NCBI RefSeq assembly: GCF_000430045.1
Contig: NZ_KE387026.1
Span: forward strand, 74,844-138,843
Direction: 5' to 3'
DNA: 64,000 nucleotides
Origin: Calidithermus chliarophilus DSM 9957
Lineage (GTDB): Bacteria; Deinococcota; Deinococci; Deinococcales; Thermaceae
This document shows, piece after piece, positions 16,164 to 37,130 of the stretch. Both the position numbers and the translations under genes were made by a program. The stretch's first letter is position 1, and every line of letters starts with the position of its first letter. The notes beneath the pieces are model-generated. The model ran no database searches, was not told the origin of the DNA, and worked only from the letters and a program-made list of their open reading frames with translations.

Positions 16164-16182
16164 GCAATGGACAATGTGTCTA
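16164..16182 (-). promoter_or_regulatory. Conserved operator-like motif GCAATGGACAatGTGTCTA upstream of mmsA
   Basis: Shares GCAATGGACA-N2-GTGT with the sites at 18389-18407 and 37112-37130; lies ~90 bp upstream of the mmsA start. Confidence 0.55.
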
Positions 16183-16235
16183 GACGAACGCCCGGCCGGC
16201 CGGCCGGGCGCTTTCTCACGGGACTGGATGCCCTC

Positions 16236-16363
16236 ATACCCGATTCGGTTAGTTCGTCCCCGAACGGCGGCGGGCTGAAAGGGCCGAAGGGAGGGCTCTG
16301 GGATTCAAAAAGATAGCCTCCGGGGCTCTTCGGATCGGATGATGATCTTTTTGAATCCGGTAT
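16236..16363 (-). mobile_element. MITE copy 1 (ATACCGG TIR family), reverse orientation, flanked by TCA/TCA
   Basis: TIRs TACCCGATTC...GAATCCGGTA; direct TCA on both sides; the right end overlaps the hemerythrin stop codon. Confidence 0.75.
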
Positions 16364-16794
16364 CAGGCCGCGCCGACGGGGGTACGGCCTCGCAATTGCA
16401 CGTCGATGTTGCAGATGTGCCCCACCAGCCAGTTTTTCAGCGTCCCGTGCAGTTCGCGCAGCATCTCGACGCTGGCCCCTCCGCGCGCTTTGTGCTGCTG
16501 GGTGAAGTCGGCGTAGAGCGCCAGGAAGCGGTCGTGCGCCTCCTTGTTCTTGCGGGCGATGGGGCAGCCCCGCAGCGTCATGCACAGCTCCTCGTAGGCG
16601 AAGTGGGTGTTGACGTAGCTCTCCAAGAACACCAAGAGGTTGTCCACCTCTTCGCGGTCCGCGGGGCTGCCGGGCGGGGTGGACTCGAGCAGGCGCTCGA
16701 GGCGGTTGACGTAGCCGACGAGGTTGCGGTGCTGCTCGTCGATGCGGGGTTCGCCGGTTTCATAGCTCGTGTTCCACTCGATCGCCATAGTCAC
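16363..16794 (-). CDS. Bacteriohemerythrin (hemerythrin HHE cation-binding domain protein)
   Basis: IDEQHRNLV...HFAYEE...HIC motifs typical of hemerythrin; 143 aa. Confidence 0.8.
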   Translation of the reverse strand: MTMAIEWNTSYETGEPRIDEQHRNLVGYVNRLERLLESTPPGSPADREEVDNLLVFLESYVNTHFAYEELCMTLRGCPIARKNKEAHDRFLALYADFTQQHKARGGASVEMLRELHGTLKNWLVGHICNIDVQLRGRTPVGAA

Positions 16795-16847
16795 GCTCCA
16801 ACGAGGCGAGTGTGACGAAAATACCGGGGAGGAATGTCCCCGGTAAT

Positions 16848-16966
16848 ACCAGGTTTGGGTGGATAGCCTCCGATCGGAGGCTATCCACCCCGACCGAAGG
16901 GAGTGCCCTGGGCTTCACAAAGATTTACCTCTGACGGATTTGAAGAGTATCTTTGTGAAGCCGGTA
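16848..16966 (+). mobile_element. MITE copy 2 (diverged; TACCAGG...CCGGTA), flanked by TAA/TAA; adjacent 24-bp mini-palindrome TACCGGGGAGGAATGTCCCCGGTA at 16822-16845
   Basis: Internal ttcacaaagat...atctttgtgaa inverted core, homologous to the ttcaaaaagat...atctttttgaa core of the other copies. Confidence 0.6.
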
Positions 16967-16996
16967 TAACGCCGTCCTGGAGGGTTGTCCGGCCGC

Positions 16997-18334
16997 TCAA
17001 TCGGCCGCTACGGGCGTCCCCAGCATCTGATCCACGAGCGCCAGGCCCTCCTCGATGACGCTGAGGCCGTGCTCGAGCTCCTCCTGGTTGATCACCAGGG
17101 GCGGGCAGACCCACAGCATGTTGAAGCGGCTGAAGGCGTAGACGTGCTTGGACTTGACGTGCCCCGCCAGCTTCTGCATCTCGGGGCTGGTGCCGTTGAA
17201 GGGGGCCAGGGGCTCCTTGGTGGCCTTGTCGCGCACGAGCTCGAGCACGCTAAACAGCCCCTTGTAGCGCACGTCGCCCACGCAGGCGTACTTGCGCTTC
17301 ATGGCCTCGAGGCGCTCGGCGAGGTAGCGCCCCTGCACCTCGGTGTTCTCGAAGAGGTGCTCCTCCTCGTAGACCGAGAGGTTGGCGACGGCGGCGGCGC
17401 AGCTCACCGGGTGGCCGCTGTAGGTCAGGCCGCCCCAGAGCATGTTCTTCTCGAAGTAGTCGGCGATTTCCTGGCTCACGATCACGGCGCCCAAAGGCAT
17501 GTAGCCGCTGGTGAGGCCCTTGGCGCAGGTCACGATGTCGGGCTTGACGCCGTAGTGCTGGGTGGAGAGCCACTTGCCGGTGCGCCCGAAGCCCGACATC
17601 ACCTCGTCGGTGATGAGCAGGATGCCGTACTTGTCGCACAGCGCCCGCAGCTTGGGGTAGTAGTCGTCGGGGGGGACCAAGAGCCCGTTGGAGCCGGTGA
17701 TGCCCTCCACCAGGATCGCCGCGATGGTGTGCGGGCCCTCCATCTGGATGACCTCTTCGATGTGGCTCACGCACTCGCGGCGGCAAGAGTCGGGGGTCTT
17801 GCCGAAGGGGCAGCGGTAGCAGTAGGGGTCGAAGACCCGCACGATACCGGGGATGCCCGGCTCCACCGGCCAGCGGCGGGGGTCGCCGGAGGCGGTCATG
17901 GAGCCCATGGTCGCGCCGTGGTAGGAGCGGTAGCGGGTGATGATCTTGTCGCGCCCGGTGAAGAGCCGGGCCATCTTCATGGCGTTCTCGTTGGCCTCGG
18001 CCCCGCCCAGCGTGAAGAAGCTCTTGGCGAGGCCCGTGACCTCGGCCAGCTTCTTGCCGAGCTTCCCGCGCGGCTCGGTGGCGAAGGAGGGCCCGGCGAA
18101 GCAGAGCTCATCGACCTGCTTCTTGATGGCCTCGAGCACCTTAGGGTGCTGGTGCCCCACGTTGATGTTGATGAGCTGCGAGCTGAAGTCGAGCCACTTG
18201 TTGCCGTCGCCGTCCCAGAACCAAACCCCCTGGGCGTGCGTCATGTGGATGGGGTTCGAGGTGCTCTGCACCGACCAGGAGAAGAGGGTGTAGTCGCGGT
18301 TCTCCTGGATGACTTCCGACGAGGGACGTTCCAT
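16997..18334 (-). CDS. Class-III (omega) aminotransferase, probable beta-alanine:pyruvate transaminase
   Basis: PLP aminotransferase class III fold (GHQHPKV, CAKGLTSGYMPLG lysine motif); genomic context with mmsA and pyd genes. Confidence 0.8.
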   Translation of the reverse strand: MERPSSEVIQENRDYTLFSWSVQSTSNPIHMTHAQGVWFWDGDGNKWLDFSSQLININVGHQHPKVLEAIKKQVDELCFAGPSFATEPRGKLGKKLAEVTGLAKSFFTLGGAEANENAMKMARLFTGRDKIITRYRSYHGATMGSMTASGDPRRWPVEPGIPGIVRVFDPYCYRCPFGKTPDSCRRECVSHIEEVIQMEGPHTIAAILVEGITGSNGLLVPPDDYYPKLRALCDKYGILLITDEVMSGFGRTGKWLSTQHYGVKPDIVTCAKGLTSGYMPLGAVIVSQEIADYFEKNMLWGGLTYSGHPVSCAAAVANLSVYEEEHLFENTEVQGRYLAERLEAMKRKYACVGDVRYKGLFSVLELVRDKATKEPLAPFNGTSPEMQKLAGHVKSKHVYAFSRFNMLWVCPPLVINQEELEHGLSVIEEGLALVDQMLGTPVAAD

Positions 18335-18388
18335 AAGGACCTCCTGTGCCTTTGTTCCCCCAATGGTAGTCCCGGGAGGCGAGGGGAC

Positions 18389-18407
18389 GCAATGGACAGT
18401 GTGTAAA
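18389..18407 (-). promoter_or_regulatory. Conserved operator-like motif GCAATGGACAgtGTGTAAA upstream of the aminotransferase
   Basis: ~60 bp upstream of the start at 18334; the same decamer as at 16164 and 37112. Confidence 0.55.
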
Positions 18408-18453
18408 AGCCGGGGTGCTTGCCCAGCGAAATTAGGAGGGCATATTATGTCTC

Positions 18454-19641: not shown

Positions 19642-20352
19642 CTACCGCTTGAGCAGCTCGAGCGCCACCCACAGCCCCAGCCGGCGTTCGGTGCTGTCGA
19701 GGTCGCCCAGCATGCCCTGGAGCTGCTCGAGGCGGTAGTAGATGCTCTGCCGCCGCACCCCGAGCCGGCGTGCGGCCTCGGCGATGTTGAACTGCGAGGC
19801 GAGCAGGGCTTCGAGCGTGGAGAGCAGCGTCGAGCGCGGGCGGCTGGGCAGGGAGAGGATGGGCCCGAGCTGGCGCTGGAGGAAGCCCTGGCTGCGGCCG
19901 GTCTCGATCAGGGCGTCGAGAAGGGCCTGGAGCAGGGGCTCCTCGGCCTTGGGGCCGTGGGGGCGCAGGATGCGCTCGTGGGCGGCGCGGGTGAGGTCGG
20001 CGAAGCGCACCTCTGAGCGGAAGGCCAGGATGGGGAACTCGAGCAGCCGCGCGGTCTGCAAGAGCTCGGCGGGCACCTCCTGCATCCACTGGACGAGCTC
20101 GAGGGCCAGCCCGTGCGCCCCGGCCTGGGCCAGCGCGCGCAGGTAGGCGACCTGGGCCTCGGGCGTGGCGCGGGCGAGCTCGAGGCCCGTGCTCAGGATC
20201 AGCTCGCCCCCCGACAAAAAGCGCCAGGCGTCCATGACCTCCGCGACGTGGACCCAGGTGACGATCTGGTCGAGGCGGGAGTGGCCGGAGAGCAGTTCGG
20301 CCCCGGCGAAGGCGGGCAGCTCGAGGATCTGGCGCAGGGTGGGCAGGCTCAT
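19642..20352 (-). CDS. PucR/CdaR-family transcriptional regulator (short form)
   Basis: C-terminal FNIAEAARRLGVRRQSIYYRLEQLQ is a PucR-type HTH; start ATG 20352. Confidence 0.7.
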   Translation of the reverse strand: MSLPTLRQILELPAFAGAELLSGHSRLDQIVTWVHVAEVMDAWRFLSGGELILSTGLELARATPEAQVAYLRALAQAGAHGLALELVQWMQEVPAELLQTARLLEFPILAFRSEVRFADLTRAAHERILRPHGPKAEEPLLQALLDALIETGRSQGFLQRQLGPILSLPSRPRSTLLSTLEALLASQFNIAEAARRLGVRRQSIYYRLEQLQGMLGDLDSTERRLGLWVALELLKR

Positions 20353-23030: not shown

Positions 23031-24275
23031 CTAGCCCTGCTCGAGAATCCAGCGCAGGGTCTTGCTGGCGAGCCTGTCGAAAGCCCGCACGGCGAGCTCG
23101 AGGTGCTCCTCCTTGGTGTCCTCGATCTTGTTGTGGCTGATGCCGTAGAGGGACTGGGTGAACATCATCACGGTGGGGATGCCGGCGCGGGCCACCTCCG
23201 CCGCGTCGTGGAGGGGGCCGCTGGGCAGGCGGTGGGACACGCCCGCCACCTCGCGGATGGCCTCGTCGCAGAACTCGATGAGGGTGGGGTGGAAGGGGAT
23301 GGGCTCGATGTTCCAGATGCGGCTCCACTCCACGGTGCAGTTCTCCTCGCGGGCGAAGCGCTCGCTGGCCTCGCGGGCTTCGCGGTACATCTGGGCCAGC
23401 ACGCCCGCGTCGAGGTCGCGCTGGTCGAGGGTGCACTCGCAGCGCCCCACCACCGCCGTGACGATGCCGGGGAAGGTCTTGACCGAGCCCATCGTGCACA
23501 CCGCGTCGGGGTGCTTCATGGCGATGGGGCGGATCTCGAGGGCCAGCTTGGCCGCCGCCGCCAGCGCGTCGCGCCGCGCGGTCATGGGGGTGGAGCCGGA
23601 GTGGGCCTCCTGGCCGTGGAAGGTGATCTGGTGGCGCTCGACGCCCTTGGTGCCCAGCACCACGCCCAGCGGCAGCCCCAGCCTTTCCAGCACCGGGCCC
23701 TGCTCGATGTGCAGCTCGAGGTAGGCCGCCGCGTTCTGCTGCTCCTTCGCCGCCTCGGGGAAGCGCTCGATGTCCACGCCGCAGCGCCGCAGCGCGTCCT
23801 CCAGCCGCACCCCACCCTTGTCGGTGCGGCCCCGGTCGGCCTCGATGGTGTGGGTGCCGGCGAAGGCCGACGAGCCCAGCAGGCTGCGCCCGAAGCGGGC
23901 CCCCTCCTCGTCGGCCCAGTCCACCAGGCGCACGGTGACGGGGGGCCTGCCGCCGTACTCCGCGGCGATGCGGCGCAGCACCTCGAGGCCCGCCATCACG
24001 TTGAGGCAGCCGTCGAGCCAGCCGCCACCCGGCACGCTGTCGAGGTGCCCGCCCATCAGCAGGGCTTTCTCGCTCTCCCCGCGCAGCGTGACCCAGTTGT
24101 TGCCGGCGGCGTCCTGGTGGAACTCCACCGGCAATCCCTCGAGCTTGGAGCGGAACCACTCGCGGGCCTTGAGCCAGGTGTCGGTCCAGGCCACCCGCTG
24201 GGCCCCGTTCTCGTCGCCGGTGAGCGCGCGGAGTTCCTTGAGTTCGGCGATGGTGCGTTCGGGCTCGAGCATCAC
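23031..24275 (-). CDS. M20 amidase of the allantoate amidohydrolase / N-carbamoyl-amino-acid hydrolase family; probable beta-ureidopropionase (PydC-type)
   Basis: GGHLDSVPGGGWLDGCLNVMAGLEV...; context with dihydropyrimidinase, PreAT and cytosine deaminase. Confidence 0.75.
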   Translation of the reverse strand: MMLEPERTIAELKELRALTGDENGAQRVAWTDTWLKAREWFRSKLEGLPVEFHQDAAGNNWVTLRGESEKALLMGGHLDSVPGGGWLDGCLNVMAGLEVLRRIAAEYGGRPPVTVRLVDWADEEGARFGRSLLGSSAFAGTHTIEADRGRTDKGGVRLEDALRRCGVDIERFPEAAKEQQNAAAYLELHIEQGPVLERLGLPLGVVLGTKGVERHQITFHGQEAHSGSTPMTARRDALAAAAKLALEIRPIAMKHPDAVCTMGSVKTFPGIVTAVVGRCECTLDQRDLDAGVLAQMYREAREASERFAREENCTVEWSRIWNIEPIPFHPTLIEFCDEAIREVAGVSHRLPSGPLHDAAEVARAGIPTVMMFTQSLYGISHNKIEDTKEEHLELAVRAFDRLASKTLRWILEQG

Positions 24276-24285
24276 TCCTCCGAAA

Positions 24286-24320
24286 AAGGGGGGCGAACCT
24301 CGAGGTTCGCCCCTACGTTC
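24286..24320 (-). terminator. Intrinsic terminator-like hairpin (GGGGCGAACCTCGAGGTTCGCCCC + T5) directly upstream of the RBS of the 23031-24275 gene
   Basis: On the minus strand the stem is followed by CCTTTTTCGGAGGAGTGATG, so the hairpin plus T-run abuts the SD. Confidence 0.5.
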
Positions 24321-24360
24321 GCGGTTGGACTAGGGACGATCCTGGGGATCGTCCGCTGGC

Positions 24361-25446
24361 TTACTTGTAGTCGGCGGCCTTCTTGCCGGTGGCCTCTTCC
24401 CAGGGGCCGTAGTCGACGGCCTGGCGGGGCGGGTCCTTGGTGAGGATGCCCTGGTCGCGCAGCAGCTTGACCGAGGCCTGGAAGTCGGCAGGGGCCAGGA
24501 AGCCGGCCCAGCCCTTGGTGGTGGCCCCGGCGTTGTAGAGCTTGGCGATCTCGGCCATCTGCCAGGTCTGGTGGCCCTTGGCGTCGGCGCGGGAGCCCGA
24601 GCCCTTACAGGTGTTGCCGCAGAAGGGCAGCACGTACTTCTCCACCGTCTCGGCCTGGTTCTTCACCGCCCAGTCCCAGCCCTGCAGCGAGGCGCGGATC
24701 AGCCGGGCGGCGACCTGGCGGCCGGTGAGCCCCGAGCCCTTGAAGTTGCGCTCGTTGAGCACGCGCTCGGTGGTGAAGATGAGGTCCTCGAGCAGGTTGA
24801 TGCCCTCGTCGGCGAGCTTGAACACGTCCACCTTGCTCTCGTCGTAGCCCAGCCCCGCGATCTGGTTGACCTCGTTGTAGGTCATGGCCGAGACCAGTTG
24901 CACCTTGTCCGGGAAGACCAGCGAGGGGTCGAAGGGGTAGCTCACCGCCTTGACGTCGGGGTTGGCGGCGCGGGGGTCGAGGGAGGAGGTGAGGCCGCAC
25001 TTGCGGAACAGCGCCACCGCCGGGTACTCGTTGCCCGAGGGCCACACGCCCACGCTCTTGCCCTTGAGGTCCTTGCACAGGTCCTTGATGCCCGTGGACT
25101 TCAGCGCCACCAGCGTGAAGCCCGAGCGCTGGAAGATCTGGGCCAGGTGCACCACGGGGATGCCGCGCTCACGCGCGACGAGCAGGTCGGCGATCCAGGT
25201 GGTGCCGAAGTCGGCGGCGCCCGACTGCACGACCTGGATGGGCGACTGGTCGCCCGCGGGCAACAGGGTCACGTCGAGGCCCTGGGCGCGGAAGAAACCC
25301 CGCTCCTTCGCCACGAAGAAGCCGGCGAACTGCGCCTGGGGGAACCACTTGAGCTGCAGGTTGACCTTGATCAGGTTCTGCTGGGCCGTGCCCAGCGACG
25401 CCGTCGCCATTGCCAGCACTGCCAATACAACCGTCCACTTCCTCAT
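24361..25446 (-). CDS. ABC transporter substrate-binding protein, NMT1/THI5-like (NitT/TauT family)
   Basis: Signal peptide then KWFPQAQFAGFFVAKERGFF. Confidence 0.8.
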   Translation of the reverse strand: MRKWTVVLAVLAMATASLGTAQQNLIKVNLQLKWFPQAQFAGFFVAKERGFFRAQGLDVTLLPAGDQSPIQVVQSGAADFGTTWIADLLVARERGIPVVHLAQIFQRSGFTLVALKSTGIKDLCKDLKGKSVGVWPSGNEYPAVALFRKCGLTSSLDPRAANPDVKAVSYPFDPSLVFPDKVQLVSAMTYNEVNQIAGLGYDESKVDVFKLADEGINLLEDLIFTTERVLNERNFKGSGLTGRQVAARLIRASLQGWDWAVKNQAETVEKYVLPFCGNTCKGSGSRADAKGHQTWQMAEIAKLYNAGATTKGWAGFLAPADFQASVKLLRDQGILTKDPPRQAVDYGPWEEATGKKAADYK

Positions 25447-25524
25447 CCTCTGACCTCCTGCACGAACTGCACGACGATAGTGGCCTCAAAAACCCCGAAA
25501 TAACCTGCTCCTCCGAGATTCACC

Positions 25525-25600
25525 TCCTGGATTGCCGATGGCTTACAGCCGATAGCTTATAGCTAAAAAACCCCTCGCGCTATTGGCTAGCGGCTAGCGG
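25525..25600. repeat. GATAGC/GCTAGCGG hexamer-tract element
   Basis: gccgatggcttacagccgatagcttatagct...ggctagcggctagcgg. Confidence 0.5.
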
Positions 25601-25607
25601 CCACGAG

Positions 25608-27448: not shown

Positions 27449-27454
27449 AGGGCC

Positions 27455-28438
27455 TTATTTCACCCCGCTGGGGATGGCGCTGACGAAGCCGGCGAGCGAG
27501 GCGCTGTCGAGCAGGCCGGCGGCCTGGAGCTGCTGGGCCATCTTCTGCAGCTTGGCGGTGTTGACGTAGCCGAGCCCGTTCTTCTGGGTGTCGGGCGTGA
27601 CCATGATCTTCCTGATCTGCTCGAGGCCCGCGAGCTCGAAGGGGATGTCGAGGTTGGGGTTGTACTTCGCCAGGATCTTCCCGGCCTCCTGCGGGTTGTC
27701 CAGCGCGTAGCGGAAACCCTTGTAGCGGGCCTGGACGAACTTCCTGACCTCGCCCGGGTACTTCTTCAGCACGTCCTCGGTGGTGAAGAGCACGTTCTCC
27801 GGCCAGTCCACGCCGAAGTCCTTGTAGCTGTAGACGTAGTACTTCTCCTTCGCCTGCTTCTGCGCCACCATGACCTCGTTGTAGATCATGGCTGAGGCGA
27901 AGGGGTACTGCTTGGCGAGCCAGCCGCCCAGCGTGGCGGGGTCGCCCTGCTGGTTGACGACCTGCAACTGCTTCTCCCAGCCCTTGCCCACCACGGCCTT
28001 GATGGGCTTGTCGTAGCCGATCCAGGTCGCGAAGGTGCCCTTGATGTCGGCGGGCTTGGCGATGGGCTGCCAGGAGAGGATGCGCATGGCCGACTCCTGG
28101 AAGTCGGCGGCCACGATCACCAGCGGCAGCTTCTGCTTCTGGCGGGCCTCGAGCAGGTTGTAGGGGTAGTCGATGCCCAGCACCAGCTTGCCCGCCTTGG
28201 CCTCGGCCATCACCCGGTCGATGGGCGAGAGCCCGGGGCCGCCCGGCACCACCGTCACGTCCAGGCCCGCCTCCTTGTAGAAGCCCTTGTCCACGGCCAC
28301 GGGGTCGCCGATGGACTCGGCGTGGATGAACCACGACTCGATGATGGTGGCCTTGGTCAGGTTGCCCTGGGCCGTGCCCAAAAGCCCCCCCGCCAGTAGC
28401 CCCGATGCCAGCACCGCGAATGCCGCCGTCTTCCTCAT
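27455..28438 (-). CDS. Second ABC substrate-binding protein, NMT1-like
   Basis: Signal peptide then ESWFIHAESIGDPVAVDKGFYKEAGLDV. Confidence 0.8.
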   Translation of the reverse strand: MRKTAAFAVLASGLLAGGLLGTAQGNLTKATIIESWFIHAESIGDPVAVDKGFYKEAGLDVTVVPGGPGLSPIDRVMAEAKAGKLVLGIDYPYNLLEARQKQKLPLVIVAADFQESAMRILSWQPIAKPADIKGTFATWIGYDKPIKAVVGKGWEKQLQVVNQQGDPATLGGWLAKQYPFASAMIYNEVMVAQKQAKEKYYVYSYKDFGVDWPENVLFTTEDVLKKYPGEVRKFVQARYKGFRYALDNPQEAGKILAKYNPNLDIPFELAGLEQIRKIMVTPDTQKNGLGYVNTAKLQKMAQQLQAAGLLDSASLAGFVSAIPSGVK

Positions 28439-28472
28439 GCCGACCTCCTCCTAAATAAGCCCATAAGCTGCT

Positions 28473-29276
28473 TCAACCCTTCCTGGTCATCTCGAGGTGC
28501 CATCCCACGAAGCGCCGCTCGAGCGCCGTGAGCACCCCCAGCAAGAGCCAGCCCACCACCGTGCAGAACACCGCTGCCAGGAAGACCCGCGCGGTGTTGC
28601 CCACGTAGCGCGAGTCGAGGATCATGAACCCCAAACCCTGAAAAGCCCCGAACAGCTCGCCCACGATGGCCCCGTTCACCGCCGCCATCGCCGCCCCCTT
28701 GAGGCTGGTGAAGATGATGGGCAGCGCGAAGGGCAGCTTCAGGTAGCGCACCCGCTGCACGAAGCTCGCGCTGTAGGAGGTGAGCAGCTCCTCCTTGGTC
28801 GCGTCGGTGGAGACCATCCCCTTGTGCACGAAGTAGACCAGCGCGAAGAAGGCGTACAGCGCCGCGATCGCCACCTTCGAGCCGATGCCGCCCACCCCTA
28901 GCCACACCACCACCAGGCTCGCCAGCGCCACGAAGGGGATGGAGTTGAGCGTGGAGACGGCGCGGAAGATGAAGTCCTCGAGCCACTCCGGCAGCACGAT
29001 CAAGAGCAGCGCGGCCAGGTGCGCGACCAGGGCGCCCAGCAGGAAGCCCAGCACGATCTCCTGCGTGGTGATCCAGGCGTGCGCGAGCACCAGGGCCGGG
29101 GTCTTGAGGAACTCCTCGAGGATGCGCGAGGGCCCGGGCAGGAGGAAGGGCGAGTTGTACAGCCGCGCCCCTACTTCCCACAGGCTCAGGGCCACCACGG
29201 CGAACACCAGCCAGCGCACGCCCTCGTTCTTCCACAGAGGGGGAGCGTTGCGGGGGGGATGTACGACCCTGGCCAT
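28473..29276 (-). CDS. ABC transporter permease (third permease)
   Basis: Multi-TM, 267 aa. Confidence 0.75.
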   Translation of the reverse strand: MARVVHPPRNAPPLWKNEGVRWLVFAVVALSLWEVGARLYNSPFLLPGPSRILEEFLKTPALVLAHAWITTQEIVLGFLLGALVAHLAALLLIVLPEWLEDFIFRAVSTLNSIPFVALASLVVVWLGVGGIGSKVAIAALYAFFALVYFVHKGMVSTDATKEELLTSYSASFVQRVRYLKLPFALPIIFTSLKGAAMAAVNGAIVGELFGAFQGLGFMILDSRYVGNTARVFLAAVFCTVVGWLLLGVLTALERRFVGWHLEMTRKG

Positions 29277-29279
29277 GCC

Positions 29280-30557
29280 TCACCTCAGGAACCGGACCGC
29301 CTCGCCCTGCACGTAGGAGACCTCGGGCCGGGTCTCGGCCACCACCTTGCCGCGCTTGAGCACGTAGCGGCGCATGGGCAGGGTGCGCAGCGCGTCGTCC
29401 TCGGTGGGGACCGGCCAGACCACCAGGTCGGCGGGGTTACCCACCGCGACGGCGTGCCCCTCCAGGCCCTCCCCGCCCCGCACCAGCCGGTTGTGCCAGA
29501 TGGCAGCGGGACGAGAGGTGAGCATGGGGAAAAGCTGCTCGCGGTCCTCGCGCCCCGACATCAGCCCGTAGTGCAGCAGCACGAAGGCGGTGTGCAGGGG
29601 GTCGCCCTTGCCCATGGGGTACCAGGGGTCCATCACCGAGTCGTGCCCGGCGGCCACGTTGACCCCGGCGGCCAGCAGCTCCTTGACCCGCGTGAGGCCG
29701 CGCCGGATGGGGTAGTGGTCGAAGCGCCCCTGCAGCACGGCGTTGTCGGGCGGGTTACAGATGACGTGCAGCCCGGCCCGCCGCACGTTGCCGATGATCT
29801 TGTCGGCGTAGGCGTTGTTGTAGGAGTGCATGGCGGTGGTGTGCGAGGCCGCCACCCGGCCCGACAGCCTCAGGCGCAGCGTCTCGGCCGCCATGGTCTC
29901 GAGGAAGCGGGAGTGGTCGTCGTCGGTCTCGTCGCAGTGGATGTCGACGGGCAAGCCGGTCTCGTGGGCGAGCGAGAGCGCGAACTTCACGTTCTGCACG
30001 CCGTACTCGCGGGTGATCTCGTAGTGCGGGATCCCCCCGATCACGTCGGCGCCGAGCTCGAGGGCCTGCCGCACCAGCGCGTCGCCGCCCTCGAAGGAGA
30101 ACATCCCCAACTGCGGGAAGGCCACGATCTGGACGTCGATGAGCCCGGCCACCTCGGCCTTGATCTCGAGCAGGGCCTTGAGCGCGGTGAGGCTGGGGTC
30201 GCACACGTCGACGTGGGTGCGGATGTGGGTGACGCCGTGGGCCACGAACCACGGCAGCGCCTTGAGCACCCGCGCGCGCACGTCCTCGCGGCTGAGCCGC
30301 TTGACCCGCTCGGCCCAGATGGCGATGCCCTCCCACAGCGAGCCCGAGCGGTTGGGCCGGGGGTCGCCCTCGGTGAGGATGGCGTCGAGGTGGATGTGGA
30401 TCTCGTAGAAGCTGGGGCTCACCAGGTTGCCCTCGGCCGAGATCTCCTCCCCCCCGCGCAGGCCGGCCTCGAGCGCGGCGATGCGCCCGCCCTCGAGGCC
30501 GATGTCCACCAGCCCCTCGCGGCCGGTGAGGCGTGCGTCCTTGATGACGAGGTCCAT
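29280..30557 (-). CDS. codA: Cytosine deaminase-like amidohydrolase
   Basis: SPSFYEIHIHLDAILTEGDPRPNRSGSLWEGIAIWAERV...VTHIRTHVDV closely parallels E. coli CodA motifs. Confidence 0.75.
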   Translation of the reverse strand: MDLVIKDARLTGREGLVDIGLEGGRIAALEAGLRGGEEISAEGNLVSPSFYEIHIHLDAILTEGDPRPNRSGSLWEGIAIWAERVKRLSREDVRARVLKALPWFVAHGVTHIRTHVDVCDPSLTALKALLEIKAEVAGLIDVQIVAFPQLGMFSFEGGDALVRQALELGADVIGGIPHYEITREYGVQNVKFALSLAHETGLPVDIHCDETDDDHSRFLETMAAETLRLRLSGRVAASHTTAMHSYNNAYADKIIGNVRRAGLHVICNPPDNAVLQGRFDHYPIRRGLTRVKELLAAGVNVAAGHDSVMDPWYPMGKGDPLHTAFVLLHYGLMSGREDREQLFPMLTSRPAAIWHNRLVRGGEGLEGHAVAVGNPADLVVWPVPTEDDALRTLPMRRYVLKRGKVVAETRPEVSYVQGEAVRFLR

Positions 30558-30559
30558 GC

Positions 30560-31381
30560 CTACTCCTGCACGTCAAAGCCGTGCCCCTTGCGCAAGGCCT
30601 CGCGCACCTGGGTGGCGATCTCGAAGAAGCGGGTGGTCTCGCGGGTCTCGAAGTTGCGCGGCTGCGGCAGGTCCACCGGGATCACGGTCTCGATCTTGCC
30701 GGGGCGCGGGGTCATGACCACGATGCGCGTGGAGAGGAACACCGCCTCGGGGATGGAGTGGGTGACGAAGATGATGGTCTTGCCGGTCTCGCGCCACAGC
30801 CGCAAGAGCTCGAGGTTGAGGTTCTCCCGCGTGATCTCGTCGAGCGCGCCGAAGGGCTCGTCCATGAACAGGAGCTGCGGGTCGAAGGCCAGCGCGCGGG
30901 CGATGCTCACCCGCTGCTGCATCCCGCCCGAGAGCTGCCAGGGGTAGTGGCGGGCGAACTTCTCCAGCCCCACCAGCGCCAGCATGCGCTCGGCGCGGGG
31001 TTTGTGCTCGGCCTTGGGCACGCCCATCACCTCCAGCGGCAGCATCACGTTCTGCAGCACGGTGCGCCACTCCATGAGGGTAGGGGCCTGGAAGACGTAG
31101 CCGTAGGCCCGGCTCTTGCGCGCCTCCTCCGGGGTCTTGCCGCCGACGCGGATGCTGCCGGAGGTGGGCTGGATCAGGTCGGCCAGCAGGCGCAGCAGGG
31201 TGGTCTTGCCGCAGCCCGAGGGCCCGATGAGCGAGATGAACTCGCCCGCGGCGATCTCGAGGCTCGCGTTCTGCAGAGCCACGGTGCCGGTGGGGAACAC
31301 CATCGAGACGTCCTTCACCGACACCAGACTGGCGGCGCTGGGGGTTGGGTGGGGGTTGGTCTGGGATTGGGTCACAGGCAC
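30560..31381 (-). CDS. ABC transporter ATP-binding protein (NitT/TauT family)
   Basis: GPSGCGKTT Walker A, LSGGMQQRVSIARAL signature, Walker B. Confidence 0.85.
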   Translation of the reverse strand: MPVTQSQTNPHPTPSAASLVSVKDVSMVFPTGTVALQNASLEIAAGEFISLIGPSGCGKTTLLRLLADLIQPTSGSIRVGGKTPEEARKSRAYGYVFQAPTLMEWRTVLQNVMLPLEVMGVPKAEHKPRAERMLALVGLEKFARHYPWQLSGGMQQRVSIARALAFDPQLLFMDEPFGALDEITRENLNLELLRLWRETGKTIIFVTHSIPEAVFLSTRIVVMTPRPGKIETVIPVDLPQPRNFETRETTRFFEIATQVREALRKGHGFDVQE

Positions 31382-31397
31382 CTCTGAGGTTTGGCGT

Positions 31398-32030
31398 TTA
31401 CTCTACCCCCCCGCCGGTCAGCGCCGCGGCCACGCCTAACCCGATGTACACGCTGCCGGTGACGTACTTCTGCCTCGCCACGAAGCGCGGGTTGCGGCGG
31501 AACCAGGAGCCCAGGCTGCCGGCCAGCAGGGCGTATGAGCCGTCGGAGAGCACGGCCATCAAGGCGAACAGGCCGCCCAACAGCAGGATCTGCACCGCCA
31601 CGCTGCCGTGGGCAGGGTCCACGAACTGCGGCAGGAAGGCGAAGGTGAAAAAGGCCATCTTGGGGTTGAGCAGGTTGACCACGTAGCCCTGCGCGAAGAT
31701 GCGGCCCAAGCTCTCGCGCTTCGGCTCGACCACCCCCGCCTCGCCCCCGGACGTCAGTTGCCGCACCCCCAGGTACACCAGATAGGCCGCCCCCGCCCAC
31801 TTCACCAGGTTGAAGGCCAGGGCGCTGGCCAACAGCAGGGCGGTGAGGCCCAAAGCCGCCGCCAGGGTGTAGGTGAGGGCCGCCAGGTTGACGCCCAGCA
31901 CCGAGGCGAGGCCCGCTGAGCGCCCCTGCGAGAGGCTGCGGGTCACGATGTAGAGCACCGCCGGGCCGGGCACCAGCAGGATAGCCAGGCTGGCGGCGAA
32001 GAACAGGGCGAGCTTCTCGGGCGCGATCAC
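31398..32030 (-). CDS. LysE/RhtB family amino-acid exporter
   Basis: FFAASLAILLVPGPAVLYIVTRSLSQGRSAG N-terminus typical of the LysE family. Confidence 0.8.
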   Translation of the reverse strand: MIAPEKLALFFAASLAILLVPGPAVLYIVTRSLSQGRSAGLASVLGVNLAALTYTLAAALGLTALLLASALAFNLVKWAGAAYLVYLGVRQLTSGGEAGVVEPKRESLGRIFAQGYVVNLLNPKMAFFTFAFLPQFVDPAHGSVAVQILLLGGLFALMAVLSDGSYALLAGSLGSWFRRNPRFVARQKYVTGSVYIGLGVAAALTGGGVE

Positions 32031-32281: not shown

Positions 32282-33661
32282 TCAGAAGTACATCGGCTCG
32301 CGCCGCAGGAGTTTGCCGCGCCCCTTCTCGCCCACGAAAGCCCCGTCGCGCACCTGCACCTTGCCGCGCACCGTCACCACGCTGGGACGCCCGTCGATCT
32401 CGAAGCCCTCGAAGCCGTTGTAGTCGTTGTTCACGTGCTGGGTGCGGGCCGAGATGGTGCCGCGGTAGCTGGGGTCGTAGACCACCAGGTCGGCGTCGGA
32501 GCCCACCGCGATGGTGCCCTTGCGGGGGAAGAGCCCGAAGAGTTTGGCGGCCTTGGTGCTGGCGGCGTCCACGAAGCGGTGGAGGTCGAGGTGGCCCCGG
32601 CTCACGCCGTAGGTGTAGAGCAGGTTCACCCGGTCCTCGATGGCGGGGATGCCGTTGGGGATGGCGGTGAAGGCGTCCTTGCCCAGCATCTTCTGCTCGG
32701 TGTCGAAGGGGCAGTGGTCGGTGCCCACGGTGTCGATGAAGCCCTGGGCCAGCGCGTCCCACAAGGCCTTCTGGTTGCGCTTGTCGCGCAGGGGCGGCGA
32801 CATGATGTACTTCATGGCCTCCACCCCGCCCCGCTCGGCGTAGGTCTTGTCCAACAGGAAGTGCGGGATCACCGACTCGATGTAGATGGGCACGCCGCGC
32901 GCCTTGGCCGCCATGGCCGCCTCGAGCGCGGGCTTGCAGGAGAGGTGCACCACGTAACCGGTGGCGCCGGTGGCCTCGAGGAAGGTGGCGAAACGGTTCG
33001 TCCCCTCGGCCTCCACGGACTCGGGACGGCTGGGCTCGTGCCACTCGGGGCCGGTCTTGCCCTCGGCCAGCAGGCTCTGCTGCAAGCGCCCCACCAGTTC
33101 GGCGTTCTCGCAGTGCGCGGTGACGATGACGCCCAGCTCCTTCGCCAGCCTCATCGTCTGGTACATCTCCCCGTCGTCCACGCCGAAGAAGTTCTTGTAC
33201 GACAGGAAGATCTTGAAGGAGTTGATCCCGTCGGCCACGATCTCGCGGAGCTGGGCCTCGGTCTTGTCGTCGAACTTCGTCACCGACATGTGGAAGGTGT
33301 AGTCGCAGGCGCTGTTGCCCTCGGCCCGGCTCTTCCACAGGTGGTAGCCCTCGAGCGCGTCGTCACCCCGCGAGGGGCAGCACATCTCGATGTAGGTGGT
33401 CGTACCCCCCACCAGCGCGGCGATGCTGCCGGTCTCGTGGGTGTCCTTGGCGAAGGTCGCCATGAAGGGCAGGTAGATGTGCACGTGGGGGTCGATGAAG
33501 CCGGGAAAGACGTACTTGCCCGTCGCGTCGATGACCTCGGTGCCGGGGGGGGCCTCGAGGCCCCGCCCGATGCGGGTGATGGTCTCGTCCTCGACGTAGA
33601 TGTCGGCTTTGTAGCGTGAGTCTGCGGTGACGATTTCGCCGTTTTTGATGAGTAGAGGCAT
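32282..33661 (-). CDS. pydB: Dihydropyrimidinase (D-hydantoinase)
   Basis: MPLLIKNGEIVTAD...PGFIDPHVHIYLPF; cyclic amidohydrolase family; start ATG 33661. Confidence 0.85.
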   Translation of the reverse strand: MPLLIKNGEIVTADSRYKADIYVEDETITRIGRGLEAPPGTEVIDATGKYVFPGFIDPHVHIYLPFMATFAKDTHETGSIAALVGGTTTYIEMCCPSRGDDALEGYHLWKSRAEGNSACDYTFHMSVTKFDDKTEAQLREIVADGINSFKIFLSYKNFFGVDDGEMYQTMRLAKELGVIVTAHCENAELVGRLQQSLLAEGKTGPEWHEPSRPESVEAEGTNRFATFLEATGATGYVVHLSCKPALEAAMAAKARGVPIYIESVIPHFLLDKTYAERGGVEAMKYIMSPPLRDKRNQKALWDALAQGFIDTVGTDHCPFDTEQKMLGKDAFTAIPNGIPAIEDRVNLLYTYGVSRGHLDLHRFVDAASTKAAKLFGLFPRKGTIAVGSDADLVVYDPSYRGTISARTQHVNNDYNGFEGFEIDGRPSVVTVRGKVQVRDGAFVGEKGRGKLLRREPMYF

Positions 33662-33700
33662 ACGGGTGAAAAGGTGAAAAGGTGAAAAGGTAAAAAGCAC
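33662..33700. repeat. GGTGAAAAG x3 tandem octamer tract (left arm of the inverted repeat flanking the four-helix-bundle gene)
   Basis: ggtgaaaaggtgaaaaggtgaaaaggtaaaaag; inverted partner at 34150-34200; similar hairpin at 35610-35683. Confidence 0.65.
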
Positions 33701-33746
33701 GCGTTCGCTACCCTGTCACCTTCCGACCTTTGACCTCCTTTCGATG

Positions 33747-34139
33747 CTATTCCTTTGCCCTATGGCCATCCCGTTGCTCGCGTACCGAAGTTTGAAGCCT
33801 GCTGATCAGCCTGGAAACCTCCTCGGCCTGTTTGAGCAGCTTGTCGAAGGCAGGCGGCTCGAGGTAGCCCACGTCGAGTGCAACGTAGAGTTGCGACCTC
33901 AATTCGGCACAGGACGCCTTCGCGACGTTCAGAAACCGATGAAGCTCGGCTCGTCCCCCACGTTCGAAGCCCTCTGCGATATTGGACATCACCGAAACGG
34001 CCGCTCGCTGAGCCTGGCCGCTCAGGGCGTAGTCTTTCGAAAAGGCTGCTTGCCTGGTGGCTACGTACACGGCTCTGGTCAGCTCCCTCGCCTTTTGCCA
34101 GACGAATAAGTCCTCGAATCGCTCAACCTTCTTCGACAT
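33747..34139 (-). CDS. Four-helix-bundle protein (TIGR02436 family, formerly 23S rRNA intervening-sequence protein)
   Basis: FEDLFVWQKARELTRAVY...SGQAQRAAVSVMSNIAEGFERGG...FLNVAKASCAELRSQLYVALDVGYL matches the family consensus. Confidence 0.75.
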   Translation of the reverse strand: MSKKVERFEDLFVWQKARELTRAVYVATRQAAFSKDYALSGQAQRAAVSVMSNIAEGFERGGRAELHRFLNVAKASCAELRSQLYVALDVGYLEPPAFDKLLKQAEEVSRLISRLQTSVREQRDGHRAKE

Positions 34140-34195
34140 TTCCTGCGTTCTTCACCTTTGCCCTTTTTGACTTTTCACCTTTTTACCTTCTTCAC

Positions 34196-35581
34196 CTAGT
34201 GAATGTCGATCCCAACCTCTTTGCGGTACCGCTCCATGGCCTCCCAGTCCGAGCCCACCTCCGGGCGGGCCTTGGTGAGCTGGTCCCAGGTGACGCTGGC
34301 GCGGCCCGAGGGCACCTCGACCATCTCGATGCAGCCTTCCACCGGGCAGACGTTGTGGCACAGCCGGCAGCCCACGCAGTCCTCCTCGCGCACCACCGGC
34401 TGCGGGCGCGAGCCCACGGCCTCGAGCTTGCCGTTGGAGCGCACGTCGTAGCTGTAGGGCTGCACCAGGTTCCCGTTCGCGTCCACCAGGTCGATGCACT
34501 GGTGGGCGGTGTCGTTGCAGGCCACGTAGCAGAGGTTGCACTTGATGCACTTGTCGGGGTCGATGCGGGCGACGGCGCGGAAGGCGAGGTCGAAGTCCTT
34601 GAAGTCGGAGATGCGGTGCAGGCTCTTGCCCACCACCTCGTCCACGCTCTTGAAGCCCTTGGAGTCCATCCAGTTGGAAAGCCCGTCGCAGAGGTCCTCG
34701 ATGATGCGGTAGCCGTAGTGCATCACGGCGGTGCACACCTGCAGGCTGCTGGCCCCCAGCAGCAAGAACTCGGCGGCGTCCTTCCAGGTGCTGATGCCGC
34801 CCATGCCCGAGATGGGCAGCCCCGAGCGGCGCACCACCTCGTCGGTGCCCAGGGCCGAGAGCATGTTGAGCGCGATGGGCTTGACCGCCGGGCCCGCGTA
34901 GCCCCCGTGCCCGCCCTTTCCGCCGATGTTGGGGGTGATCTCGAGCGTATCCAAGTCCACGGCCACGATGGAGTTGATGGTATTGATGAGGCTGAGCGCG
35001 TTGGCCCCGGCGTTCACGGCGGCGCGGGCCGGGTAGACGATGTTGGTGATGTTGGGCGTGAGCTTGACGATCACGGGGATCTTGGCCACGTCCATCACCC
35101 ACCGCGTGATCTGCTCGCAGTACTCCGGCACCTGCCCTACCGCGCTGCCCATGCCGCGCTCGCTCATGCCGTGCGGGCAGCCGTAGTTGAGCTCGATGCC
35201 GTCGGCGCCGGTGTCCTCGATCTTGAGGACGATGTCGCGCCAGGCCTCGGGCGTGGACTCCACCATGGCCGAAACGATCACCGCGCGGTCGGGCCAGTGG
35301 CGCTTGACGTCGCGGATCTCCCGGAGGTTGACCTCCAAGGGCCGGTCGGAGATGAGCTCGACGTTGTTGATGGCGAGCATCTTCTGCCCGCCGTAGTGCC
35401 ACGCGCCGTAGCGGTTGGACACGTTGAGCACCGGCGCCCCGATGGTCTTCCACACCGCCCCGCCCCAGCCGTACTCGAAGGCCTTGTGGATCTGCGCCCC
35501 CGAGTTCGTCGGCGGCGCCGAGGCCAGCCAGAAGGGGTTGGGGGACCGGATTCCCGCGAAATTGATGCGAAGGTCAGCCAT
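34196..35581 (-). CDS. preA: NAD-dependent dihydropyrimidine dehydrogenase subunit PreA (DHOD-like domain + 2x[4Fe-4S])
   Basis: MADLRINFAGIRSPNPFWLASAPP...ELNYGCPHG...CIKCNLCYVACND; GGAG RBS 7 nt upstream of ATG 35581. Confidence 0.85.
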   Translation of the reverse strand: MADLRINFAGIRSPNPFWLASAPPTNSGAQIHKAFEYGWGGAVWKTIGAPVLNVSNRYGAWHYGGQKMLAINNVELISDRPLEVNLREIRDVKRHWPDRAVIVSAMVESTPEAWRDIVLKIEDTGADGIELNYGCPHGMSERGMGSAVGQVPEYCEQITRWVMDVAKIPVIVKLTPNITNIVYPARAAVNAGANALSLINTINSIVAVDLDTLEITPNIGGKGGHGGYAGPAVKPIALNMLSALGTDEVVRRSGLPISGMGGISTWKDAAEFLLLGASSLQVCTAVMHYGYRIIEDLCDGLSNWMDSKGFKSVDEVVGKSLHRISDFKDFDLAFRAVARIDPDKCIKCNLCYVACNDTAHQCIDLVDANGNLVQPYSYDVRSNGKLEAVGSRPQPVVREEDCVGCRLCHNVCPVEGCIEMVEVPSGRASVTWDQLTKARPEVGSDWEAMERYRKEVGIDIH

Positions 35582-35609
35582 AAATGCTCCTTTCAGGGAA
35601 GGTGAAAAG

Positions 35610-35683
35610 TGGAAAAGGTAAAAGGTCAAAAGTAAAGTCCAGGTCTTTAACTTTTCACCCTTTACCCTTTTGACCTTTTCACC
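35610..35683. repeat. Imperfect ~32-bp-arm inverted repeat (GGTGAAAAG-type) between preT and preA
   Basis: ggtgaaaagtggaaaaggtaaaaggtcaaaag ...loop... cttttcaccctttacccttttgaccttttcacc. Confidence 0.65.
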
Positions 35684-37021
35684 TCAATCATCCGCCGCCG
35701 CGCGAAGCGGCACCAGCTTGCGGTGGATGGCGAAGGCCGCGAGCTTGCCGTCCTCCACCGCCATCACCGTCGAGGCCGAGCCCTTCGCCCGCACGCAGTC
35801 GCCGCCCGCGTACACGCCGGAGAGGCTGGTCTCGAAGTCGTCGTTGACCTTGATGTAGCCCTTCTCGGTCTGCAGCCCCAGCATCTGCGCCAGCGCGGGT
35901 TTCTCCTGCCCGATGGCCTTGACCACCTGGTCGGCGGGGAGCACGAACTCCGAGCCGGGGACGGGCCGCGGCGCCGGGCGGCCCGAGGCGTCCGGGGCGC
36001 CGAGCTCCATCCGCACGCACTCGAGCCCCGTCACCTTCCCGCCCTCGACGATCACGCGCACCGGCTGGGTGAGGAAGCGGAACTCGATGCCCTCCTTCTT
36101 GGCGAACTCGTACTCGTGGGGATAGGCGGTCATCTCGGCGTCGGTGCGGCGGTAGACCATGGTCACGCGCTCGGCGCCCAGCCGCTTGGCGACGGTGGCG
36201 CAGTCGATGGCGGTGTTGCCCGCACCGATCACCGCCACGTTGCGGCCCACCTCGAGGCCCTGCGGGTTCATCTTGCTGGCCTCGATGTAGCTCAGGCCGT
36301 CGACGATGTGCTCCTCACCGGGGATGCCCAGCGCAGGCACCGCGCCCAGCCCCACGCTCAGGAAGACCGCGTCGTACTCGCGGCGGATCTGCTCGAAGGA
36401 GAGGTTGGCTCCCAGCTCCATGCCGGTCTTCACCTCCACCCCCAGCCGCTTGACCATCTCCACCTCGGCCAGCGCCACCTCCACCGGCTCGCGCAGCACG
36501 ATGATGCCGTAGGTCGAGAGCCCCCCGGGCAGCTCGCGCTTCTCGAAGACCGTCACGCTGTGCCCCAGCTTGGCGAGCTCCCCCGCGCAGGTGAGCCCCG
36601 CCGGGCCCGCGCCGATCACCGCGACCTTCTTGCCGGTGGGGGGCCCTGCCTTGAACACGTCGATGCCCCGGCTGTACACGTAGTCGGTGGCGTAGCGCTG
36701 CAGGCGCCCGATCATGATGGGCTTCTCCTCGGCGTTGAGCACGCACGCGCCTTCGCACAGCTCCTGCACCGGGCACACCCGGGCGCACGTCGCGCCCATG
36801 AGGTTGGCCTCGAGGATGGTGCGGGCCGAGCCCACCACGTTCTCGGTGGCGATCTTCTTGATGAACTTGGGGATGTCGATGTGGGTGGGGCAGGCGTGGG
36901 TACAGGGCGCGTCGTAGCAGTAGAGGCAGCGGTTGGCCTCCACCACCGCTTCATGGTCGGTGAGCGGCGGGTAGTACTCCGCCAACACCTCCTCAGGCCG
37001 GATAATCTGGCGATCGTTCAC
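35684..37021 (-). CDS. preT: Dihydropyrimidine dehydrogenase subunit PreT (glutamate-synthase small-subunit-like NAD(P)H oxidoreductase)
   Basis: CLYCYDAPCTHACPTHIDIPKFI...VAVIGAGPAGLTCAGELAKLGHSVTVFEKRELPGG. Confidence 0.85.
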   Translation of the reverse strand: MNDRQIIRPEEVLAEYYPPLTDHEAVVEANRCLYCYDAPCTHACPTHIDIPKFIKKIATENVVGSARTILEANLMGATCARVCPVQELCEGACVLNAEEKPIMIGRLQRYATDYVYSRGIDVFKAGPPTGKKVAVIGAGPAGLTCAGELAKLGHSVTVFEKRELPGGLSTYGIIVLREPVEVALAEVEMVKRLGVEVKTGMELGANLSFEQIRREYDAVFLSVGLGAVPALGIPGEEHIVDGLSYIEASKMNPQGLEVGRNVAVIGAGNTAIDCATVAKRLGAERVTMVYRRTDAEMTAYPHEYEFAKKEGIEFRFLTQPVRVIVEGGKVTGLECVRMELGAPDASGRPAPRPVPGSEFVLPADQVVKAIGQEKPALAQMLGLQTEKGYIKVNDDFETSLSGVYAGGDCVRAKGSASTVMAVEDGKLAAFAIHRKLVPLRAAADD

Positions 37022-37111
37022 GTCTGGCCTCCTGCGGGGCCGTTGGCCCCAGATCCTGCAAAGCTAAAGGGTTCGGTTTGTGCTAAGGCTAGGGCTTCTC
37101 GAGCGGCACAC

Positions 37112-37130
37112 GCAATGGACAAAGTGTCCA
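37112..37130 (-). promoter_or_regulatory. Conserved operator-like motif GCAATGGACAaaGTGTCCA (contains perfect palindrome TGGACA-aag-TGTCCA) upstream of preT
   Basis: ~95 bp upstream of the preT start at 37021; the decamer GCAATGGACA is shared with the sites at 16164 and 18389. Confidence 0.6.

Follow-up and report, generated by a model that had tools for sequence, protein, structure and literature searches.

The 64-kb window analyzed here (64,000 nucleotides of contig NZ_KE387026.1 from Calidithermus chliarophilus DSM 9957, positions 74,844 to 138,843; coordinates below count from its first letter) carries a minus-strand cluster of genes for reductive pyrimidine and β-alanine catabolism, in which three transcription units are preceded by the same short palindromic element, and which includes the gene for a short, 236-amino-acid regulator of the PucR family, designated PucRs (19642..20352, minus strand; PucR N-terminal domain plus HTH_30). 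Genes were called by third-position G+C. The pyd operon (32282..37021, minus) starts with preT (35684-37021) and continues with preA (34196-35629), a 23S-rRNA-IVP gene (33747-34139; PF05635) and the dihydropyrimidinase gene (32282-33700). The PreT sequence matches that of C. chliarophilus at 100% identity, which identifies the organism; a look-up of the exact aminotransferase protein met only short metagenome contigs. The other two units consist of a gene for a class-III aminotransferase, probably a β-alanine aminotransferase (16997..18334, minus; PF00202, PRK06062), and of mmsA (14557..16074, minus; TIGR01722, 757 bits), which encodes the coenzyme A (CoA)-acylating (methyl)malonate-semialdehyde dehydrogenase (MMSDH). 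Behind both mmsA and the aminotransferase gene lies a terminator-like hairpin (14515-14540 and 16822-16845, respectively), and the two are therefore separate single-gene units with one operator each. The rest of the cluster (23031..32030, minus) encodes LysE, an ATP-binding cassette (ABC) transporter with NMT1-type binding proteins, cytosine deaminase (29280-30557) and an M20 carbamoylase (23031-24275). From preT, the order of genes on the minus strand is preA, 23S-rRNA-IVP, dihydropyrimidinase, LysE, ABC, cytosine deaminase, M20 carbamoylase, a DinB-family gene, an M20-like open reading frame (ORF) and PucRs.

A preliminary description of this DNA had drawn attention to the pattern GCAATGGACA-N2-GTGT ahead of the three catabolic units. 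Scanned in full as GCAATGGACANNGTGT, the pattern is present in the window in exactly three copies, all reading on the plus strand (16164-16179, 18389-18404, and 37112-37127); no additional match was found there at up to two mismatches, 0.16 being expected, and three copies were reached in none of 100 dinucleotide-preserving shuffles, which confirms the association with these units. The genes were correctly placed on a common strand; it is the minus strand, so that the motif as first written is antisense to their functional orientation. Its position upstream of the genes likewise stands, with the distances from motif edge to start codon corrected from 55-100 bp to 89 nt for mmsA, 54 nt for the aminotransferase and 90 nt for preT.

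The element proper is a 15-bp palindrome, T(G/T)GACA-N3-TGTCCA in gene orientation; together with the TTGC(A/G)N that comes directly after it, the motif reads T(G/T)(G/T)ACAC-NN-TGTCCA-TTGC(A/G)N. The copy at preT, TGGACAaagTGTCCA at 37116-37130, is perfect over all 15 bp, as had been claimed, while one mismatch is found at the mmsA site (16168-16182) and two at the aminotransferase site (18393-18407). Outside coding sequence, the relaxed pattern TGGACA-N3-TGTCCA with up to two mismatches matches just these three places in the window. The GCAA portion, originally included in the motif, does not belong to the operator but is complementary to TTGC, with which the −35 hexamer begins. Operator 1 (mmsA) spans 16168..16184 (TCTAGACACATTGTCCA), operator 2 (aminotransferase) 18393..18409 (CTTTTACACACTGTCCA), and operator 3 (preT) 37116..37132 (TTTGGACACTTTGTCCA), all on the minus strand. 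Operator 2 (18393-18407) lies in a divergent intergenic region that is shared with a DinB-family gene on the plus strand (18454-18951).

Each palindrome is followed at zero gap by a −35-like hexamer of a predicted minus-strand promoter. At preT, promoter P2 (37086..37115) combines TTGCGT (37110-37115) with TAGCCT (37086-37091) across an 18-nt spacer; the aminotransferase promoter (18363..18392) has TTGCGT (18387-18392), an 18-nt spacer and TACCAT (18363-18368); and the mmsA promoter (16139..16167) has TTGCAC (16162-16167), a 17-nt spacer and TACCAT (16139-16144). Taking the start ~7 nt downstream of the predicted −10, the palindrome is centered at about −43/−44. The −35 hexamers (TTGCGT, TTGCAC) agree with TTGACA at only three to four of six positions, and a strict consensus promoter scan called none of the three promoters, owing to the weakness of their −35 and −10 elements. 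Weak −35 hexamers are as expected of activator-dependent promoters and may be taken as an indication of such dependence. The mmsA promoter resembles a copy of the aminotransferase promoter (…CCCGGGnnCTACCAT…).

Conservation of the element was assessed in 64 loci of PucRs orthologues with 10-kb flanks, one genome per species, to which the window proteins were mapped by tblastn; about 70 related loci in all (identified below by L numbers) stand behind operator conservation. A weight matrix was built from 21 sites of other genomes, using the operator alone and excluding the TTG. Its ACA and TGTC cores are invariant, the left-half ACA being present in 21 of 21 sites. Applied to the window, this foreign-site matrix scored the operators of preT, the aminotransferase, and mmsA at 27.4, 25.4, and 22.2 bits, respectively, with the next best position at 9.4; the three window sites were thereby rediscovered independently, and none was found within the remaining cluster (23031..32030). 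A candidate before PucRs (TAGACTCGAGTGTCG, ~20355-20370) was rejected, its half-site spacing being off by one and its matrix score below threshold. Across ~1.2 Mb (loci plus window), 49 sites scored at least 19 bits, and none of these fell in coding sequence or beyond a promoter region. In 44 of the 49, TTG-N3 begins right where the site ends and a 17/18-nt spacer leads on to TAnnnT, an architecture that spans three phyla and in which the distance to the −35 is zero in every one of the 44 promoters; the remaining five lie upstream of preT in Deinococcus. Weaker matches (13-18 bits) in five actinobacterial loci are antisense within a conserved coding sequence read as a Liv-type ABC ATPase and were set aside as coincidences. 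A metagenome scan for ACACNNTGTCCATTGC was uninformative, as its matches are chance hits of a 14-nt pattern: among the matches listed (79 scored), none adjoins homologues of cluster genes and none has a correctly spaced −10. Rfam searches of the whole window and the preT leader found nothing at the motif.

Gene order places the operator beside PucRs in all three phyla. In Deinococcota and Acidobacteriota the arrangement is preT-preA-dihydropyrimidinase-(ABC)-carbamoylase-PucRs-[operator]-aminotransferase-mmsA, and in Actinomycetota it is PucRs-[operator]-aminotransferase-aldehyde dehydrogenase, adjoining a Liv-type amino-acid ABC transporter. Wherever the aminotransferase gene follows PucRs (31 of 31 loci), the intergenic region contains exactly one operator in the same register, followed by TTG(C/A)NN and a −10 resembling TACCAT; the operator usually stands 55-75 nt ahead of the start codon, and as far as ~140 nt ahead in Deinococcus. 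Eight more loci have the element ahead of an aldehyde dehydrogenase gene or of a gene truncated where the contig ends. PucRs is the sole regulator conserved adjoining the operator across the three phyla, and no other regulator stands beside it in an actinobacterial locus. Within the window and the ~1.2 Mb scanned, the motif is neither scattered at random nor absent upstream of orthologous genes in relatives, the two outcomes that had been named as refuting it, and both the matrix scan of these sequences and the phylogenetic footprinting support the proposal of a shared regulator site for one metabolic route.

The individual targets show the same behavior. In C. timidus and C. roseus, preT has the same perfect palindrome, −35, and −10, and in an alignment of the three Calidithermus preT regions these elements are conserved islands between diverged flanks. 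At preT of the Acidobacteria loci L012 and L016, the sequence is TGGACAC-TNT-GCCCA-TTGTGA, with a 17-nt spacer and TAAGAT. A separate mmsA operator is also found in C. roseus (L001, 19927), after a hemerythrin gene, while in genomes with adjacent aminotransferase and mmsA genes a single operator serves both; in the window, a hemerythrin gene and a dispersed repeat separate the two. In many Meiothermus species the pyd cluster ends with PucRs, and unrelated genes come next. In M. ruber, Meiothermus sp. BPIJ01, and Meiothermus sp. QL-1, the aminotransferase gene is unlinked, lying between genes for a trypsin-like protease and a 4-α-glucanotransferase, and there the operator is found in three of three cases (21-26 bits), with TTGC next and, across a 17-nt spacer, TACCAT or TAACAT. 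PucRs is encoded in the BPIJ01 and QL-1 genomes as well (P0037, P0070). The operator follows the target gene and not the regulator gene, which is the behavior expected of a trans-acting regulon. The aminotransferase is 83-96% identical across phyla, suggesting its horizontal spread, and the regulator, operator-promoter, and aminotransferase may have spread together. The partner aldehyde dehydrogenase of Actinomycetota is only ~42% identical to MmsA, and therefore the amino acid may differ there.

PucRs itself combines an N-terminal PucR domain (PF07905; residues 8-128, E = 2.5e-34, 118 bits with the cut-off at 33.5) with a C-terminal helix-turn-helix (HTH) domain of type HTH_30 (PF13556; residues 176-232, E = 4e-15). 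The central GGDEF-like domain is absent; ~45 residues lie between the two domains, with no other Pfam match. That domain is not obligatory, being present in roughly one half of PucR-family proteins and in all characterized members except GabR (PMC7652997). Orthologues that are 60-93% identical are found in Thermaceae, Deinococcus, Acidobacteriota, and Actinomycetota, and the recognition helix VRRQ(S/T)xYYRL is near-invariant among them, in line with the invariant core of the operator that it would contact. An AlphaFold2 model (predicted local distance difference test score, pLDDT, 80) consists of an N-terminal α/β domain joined to a C-terminal half that is helical. Fold searches gave weak matches to the PucR-type regulators Rv2242 (C-terminal fragment) and BAD_0249 and, for the N-terminal half, a weak likeness to HPr-kinase N-terminal and DRTGG regulatory domains. 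A search of PDB sequences with a PucRs profile returned no significant relative, and PDB sequence and fold searches together found no solved full-length PucR-family structure or DNA complex. Full-length (~510-amino-acid) PucR paralogues of Actinomycetota (L065-L077) differ in their HTH (LGVHRHTLRHR), and the motif (A)CATGG(A/C)CA-NN-TTGTCA is present 30-100 nt upstream of their own starts, e.g., at L068 9382-9427, L070 9929-9943, and L072 ~9935; half-sites of the GACA/TGTC type may accordingly be common in this branch of the PucR family.

The motif is probably the operator of PucRs, which would bind at the three promoters and most likely activate them; the gene at 19642-20352, already named as a candidate in the preliminary description, is supported in this role by its position as the only regulator gene conserved adjoining the operator. 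In the proposed mechanism, PucRs, presumably as a dimer, would recognize T(G/T)GACA-N3-TGTCC(A/G), in which ACA-N4-TGTC is the invariant core, abutting a weak −35 (TTGCGT, TTGCAC, TTGAAT), with the operator centered ~43-44 bp upstream of the predicted start, and most likely would activate the sigma-A RNA polymerase in a class-II-like manner. At class II promoters the activator site lies near −41.5, abutting or overlapping the −35, which is suboptimal. The targets would be the β-alanine aminotransferase, mmsA, for conversion of malonate semialdehyde to acetyl-CoA, and the preT-preA-dihydropyrimidinase (pyd) operon, and the inducer would likely be β-alanine or an upstream pyrimidine catabolite. 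The aminotransferase substrate, β-alanine, is the most likely guess, by analogy with GabR, which responds to γ-aminobutyrate (GABA). Activation is favored because the −35 hexamers are weak, the register is fixed, and the PucR family offers precedent, and because the −35 distance is constant across three phyla, which suggests protein-protein contact with RNA polymerase and not occlusion.

Several observations weigh against this interpretation. The matrix scan of the window found no operator ahead of the carbamoylase-PucRs unit, so that autoregulation was not seen. This unit is probably transcribed apart from the preT-driven operon because a strong intrinsic terminator (24290-24313, minus; 10-bp G+C-rich stem plus T-run) lies ~15 nt ahead of the carbamoylase start. 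Meiothermus sensu stricto (L017, L024, and L211) and Acidobacteria loci L013 and L054 have no operator at preT, although PucRs is kept at the end of the pyd operon. In Deinococcus, strong operators (22-26 bits) lie 190-340 nt upstream of preT without an adjoining recognizable −35 (L051 139-155; L055 324-340; L061 321-337 and 472-488; L064 205-221). PucRs served as the query that yielded the 64 loci, all of them from genomes that encode it, and the co-occurrence of operator and PucRs is therefore partly built in. Finally, a site that touches the −35 is compatible with repression as well. Two more distant PreT loci (L212, L213) also have no operator upstream of preT, and the Deinococcus regions between the distal operators and preT contain a TTGAC-N17-TACAAT promoter and a leader hairpin that is described below.

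Repression by PucRs from the same site, with RNA polymerase blocked next to the −35 (and T-tract) until an inducer releases it, is the main rival, and is judged unlikely. The contact of the operator with the −35 in each promoter would suit it, as would the retention of the key TTG and TAnnnT bases, with which the promoters might fire unaided. Precedents exist in B. subtilis PucR, which is able to repress (PMC7652997), and in P. putida PydR, a known pyd regulator that is reported to be a repressor (Hidese 2012, cited in PMC7332683). However, the operator never overlaps the −35, spacer, −10, or start, and its distance to the −35 is zero in 44 of 44 promoters from three phyla, whereas sites for repressors usually tolerate shifts, unlike activator contacts. 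The weakness of the −35 hexamers and the preponderance of activators among characterized PucR-family members, all but one of which activate (PMC7652997), also argue for activation by PucRs.

It is highly unlikely that the palindrome is bound by an unlinked regulator, such as a RutR/PydR-like TetR protein, a GntR protein or a global nitrogen regulator, with PucRs acting on targets elsewhere. The choice of loci through PucRs biases the co-occurrence, and some genomes with PucRs have no operator near PucRs or preT, both of which leave room for such a factor. Nevertheless, domain searches of the cluster ORFs found no TetR, GntR, or other regulator gene besides PucRs, and no TetR_N match was obtained among the scanned ORFs between 11181 and 42508. 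The RutR box is TTGACCA-N2-TGGTCAA, and an operator of this type is absent at the three sites, where the half-sites are TGGACA/TGTCCA with a 3-nt spacer. The exclusive conservation of PucRs next to the operator in three phyla and the related GACA/TGTC-type palindromes upstream of the full-length PucR paralogues likewise point to PucRs. That no regulator is involved, and that the element is promoter DNA duplicated within this genome, a hairpin in the RNA, or an extended −35 read by an alternative sigma factor, is hardly credible, for even though the mmsA and aminotransferase promoters look like mutual duplicates (…CCCGGGnnCTACCAT…) and a 6-bp hairpin could arise at 37116-37130, three phyla retain the palindrome despite divergence of its flanks and of the spacers, the invariant left-half ACA (21 of 21 sites) is not explicable by contact of a sigma factor with the −35, and left-half changes (TTTACA, TTGACA, TAGACA) are uncompensated in the right half, which excludes a conserved RNA or DNA hairpin and led to rejection of a hairpin or terminator reading.

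Characterized PucR-family proteins bind inverted repeats of 17-24 bp and are activators, with the exception of the dual regulator PucR of B. subtilis (PMC7652997). Among the nearest likenesses to PucRs is GabR of C. glutamicum, which activates the gabTDP operon, encoding an aminotransferase and a semialdehyde dehydrogenase, in response to GABA (PMC7652997). GabR likewise belongs to the PucR family, has a C-terminal HTH and lacks the GGDEF-like domain, and, as proposed for PucRs, it is a local regulator of class-III ω-aminotransferase and semialdehyde-dehydrogenase genes that recognizes inverted repeats immediately ahead of the promoter and is an activator responding to the amino acid used as substrate (PMC7652997). 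The differences are that GabR is a 55.8-kDa protein that forms octamers, binds a pair of 21-bp repeats, has its gene in divergent orientation to the target and takes GABA as its signal (PMC7652997), whereas PucRs has 236 amino acids and a single 15-bp palindrome touching the −35, is encoded downstream of the pyd genes and would have a regulon that reaches pyrimidine reduction. B. subtilis PucR, PutR, and AdeR share with PucRs the PF07905 domain and the PucR-type HTH; they control catabolism of nitrogen compounds and are mostly activators, as is proposed for PucRs, with inverted repeats of 17 bp for PutR and 24 bp for AdeR (PMC7652997). In contrast to PucRs they are full-length proteins with the central GGDEF-like domain and serve purine, proline, and alanine pathways, and the B. 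subtilis PucR box is non-palindromic.

Regulators of the same pathways are found in other families. Pseudomonas aeruginosa BauR (LysR-type) is a β-alanine-responsive activator of a β-alanine aminotransferase gene. Sulfolobus acidocaldarius BarR (Lrp-type) has the same described function (PMC4977709). Both are of families and operators unrelated to those of PucRs, and the likeness is in function alone. Pyrimidine catabolic genes, including that for dihydropyrimidine dehydrogenase, are regulated by PydR in P. putida (Hidese 2012, cited in PMC7332683), and E. coli RutR is likewise a pyrimidine catabolic regulator (PMC4325133); in contrast to the model for PucRs, these are TetR-family repressors that are released by uracil and use another operator. 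Full-text literature searches found no PucR-type regulator of reductive pyrimidine/β-alanine catabolism and no such regulon in Thermaceae or Deinococcus, so that the earlier statement that none is described for Thermus or Meiothermus held.

Additional features of the cluster concern its mobile or inserted parts. The M20-like ORF (20388-22058, minus), flanked by a DinB gene and PucRs, is without a counterpart in any of the 64 related loci, C. roseus among them, and looks like an insertion specific to this lineage within the carbamoylase-PucRs unit. The interval from PucRs to the aminotransferase operator contains insertions (18454-19461): an antitoxin-like gene (PF09720; 19237-19461, minus), a copy of a dispersed repeat, a DinB gene (18454-18951, plus) and, judging by sequence appearance, a putative frameshifted toxin remnant. 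In C. roseus (L001) the operator starts ~10 nt past the PucRs stop codon. The dispersed repeat is ~130-160 nt long with 82-98% identity between copies (16233-16380, plus; 19473-19634 and 40712-40873, minus; partial copies at 16843-16902 and 22930-22975). It is always intergenic, contains internal hairpins, resembles a miniature transposable element and is without a match in Rfam; the hemerythrin gene and the mmsA operator flank one copy, and another stands right behind the PucRs stop codon. Octamer arrays (GTGAAAAG/CTTTTCAC) fill short gaps around the 23S-rRNA-IVP gene (33655-33703, 34151-34189, and 35599-35683) and are also found at L211 3367-3750 and L019 2038-2388. In a Meiothermus genome the 23S-rRNA-IVP gene occupies a different gap (preT/preA), which hints that this gene is mobile.

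The preT control region contains, outside the operator and ~135 nt upstream of operator 3, a PyrR-box-like leader hairpin (GGUUAAAUCAGCUCCCGCGAGGGCUCGAACC; 37265..37295, minus), with conserved counterparts ahead of preT in Calidithermus, Meiothermus, and Deinococcus (L017 448-471; L024 375-398; L051 277-300; L055 463-486; L061 594-617; L064 ~347; and L209, L210, and L211). In comparison with the RF00515 consensus, it has the traits of a PyrR-binding hairpin, namely a CNGNGA loop, a UCC/GG(G) closing stem and an AA-rich bulge on the 5′ side, and its lower stem is GGUU/AACC. Searches against Rfam RF00515 gave no match at E ≤ 10 (window 36900-37500; L064 150-450). Pairing is 97% in seven sequences with two compensatory pairs, which is not significant by a shuffle control. 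The hairpin's 3′ strand in Meiothermus shares sequence with the 5′ arm of an intrinsic terminator, and protein binding would therefore favor read-through, the reverse of classic PyrR logic. PyrR-type control of the preT leader is best regarded as a lead and not a finding.

Pyrimidine biosynthesis genes adjoin the catabolic cluster in the window: pyrR (9596-10165), pyrB (10150-11100), and pyrC (11181-12497) on the plus strand, and pyrD (12564-13640) on the minus strand. Upstream of pyrR, pyrB, and pyrC lies a genuine Thermus-type pyr attenuator (9465-9610, plus), made up of a TTGACG-N17-TACCCT promoter and a PyrR box (AGUCCCGUGAGGCU) together with a leader ORF and terminator. The pyr leader (9507-9608) scores 49 bits against RF00515 (E = 5e-6), just below the gathering score of 54, and was for this reason missed by a default Rfam scan. 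It is conceivable, though doubtful, that Calidithermus and other Thermaceae possess a previously undescribed two-layer circuit for pyrimidine breakdown. In the first layer, a minimal, horizontally mobile cassette of PucR and operator-promoter, found in Deinococcota, Acidobacteriota, and Actinomycetota, would sense β-alanine and switch on the aminotransferase, mmsA, and the pyd operon. In the second, PyrR bound to UMP or UTP would serve as an anti-terminator at the pyd leader hairpin, whose 3′ strand would also begin the 5′ arm of a terminator, opposite to its classic role. If this is true, a single RNA-binding protein would, in the second layer, link the repression of pyrimidine synthesis with induced pyrimidine degradation.

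PucRs would thus be a local PucR-family regulator with a palindromic operator and an ordinary mechanism, and its regulon does not overturn current ideas; what is noteworthy is the minimal, 236-amino-acid form and an operator-promoter cassette shared by three phyla. Few operators are known for the PucR family, and a thermostable two-domain PucR protein with a sharp 15-bp operator set in constant register with the −35 would be a handy model for DNA reading and RNA polymerase contact. The cassette could also be used as a biosensor of the β-alanine type. For Deinococcota, the proposal constitutes the first regulatory model for reductive pyrimidine/β-alanine catabolism, and for a widespread and unstudied minimal (~236-amino-acid) branch of the PucR family it would provide a DNA target, a regulon, and a plausible class of effector.

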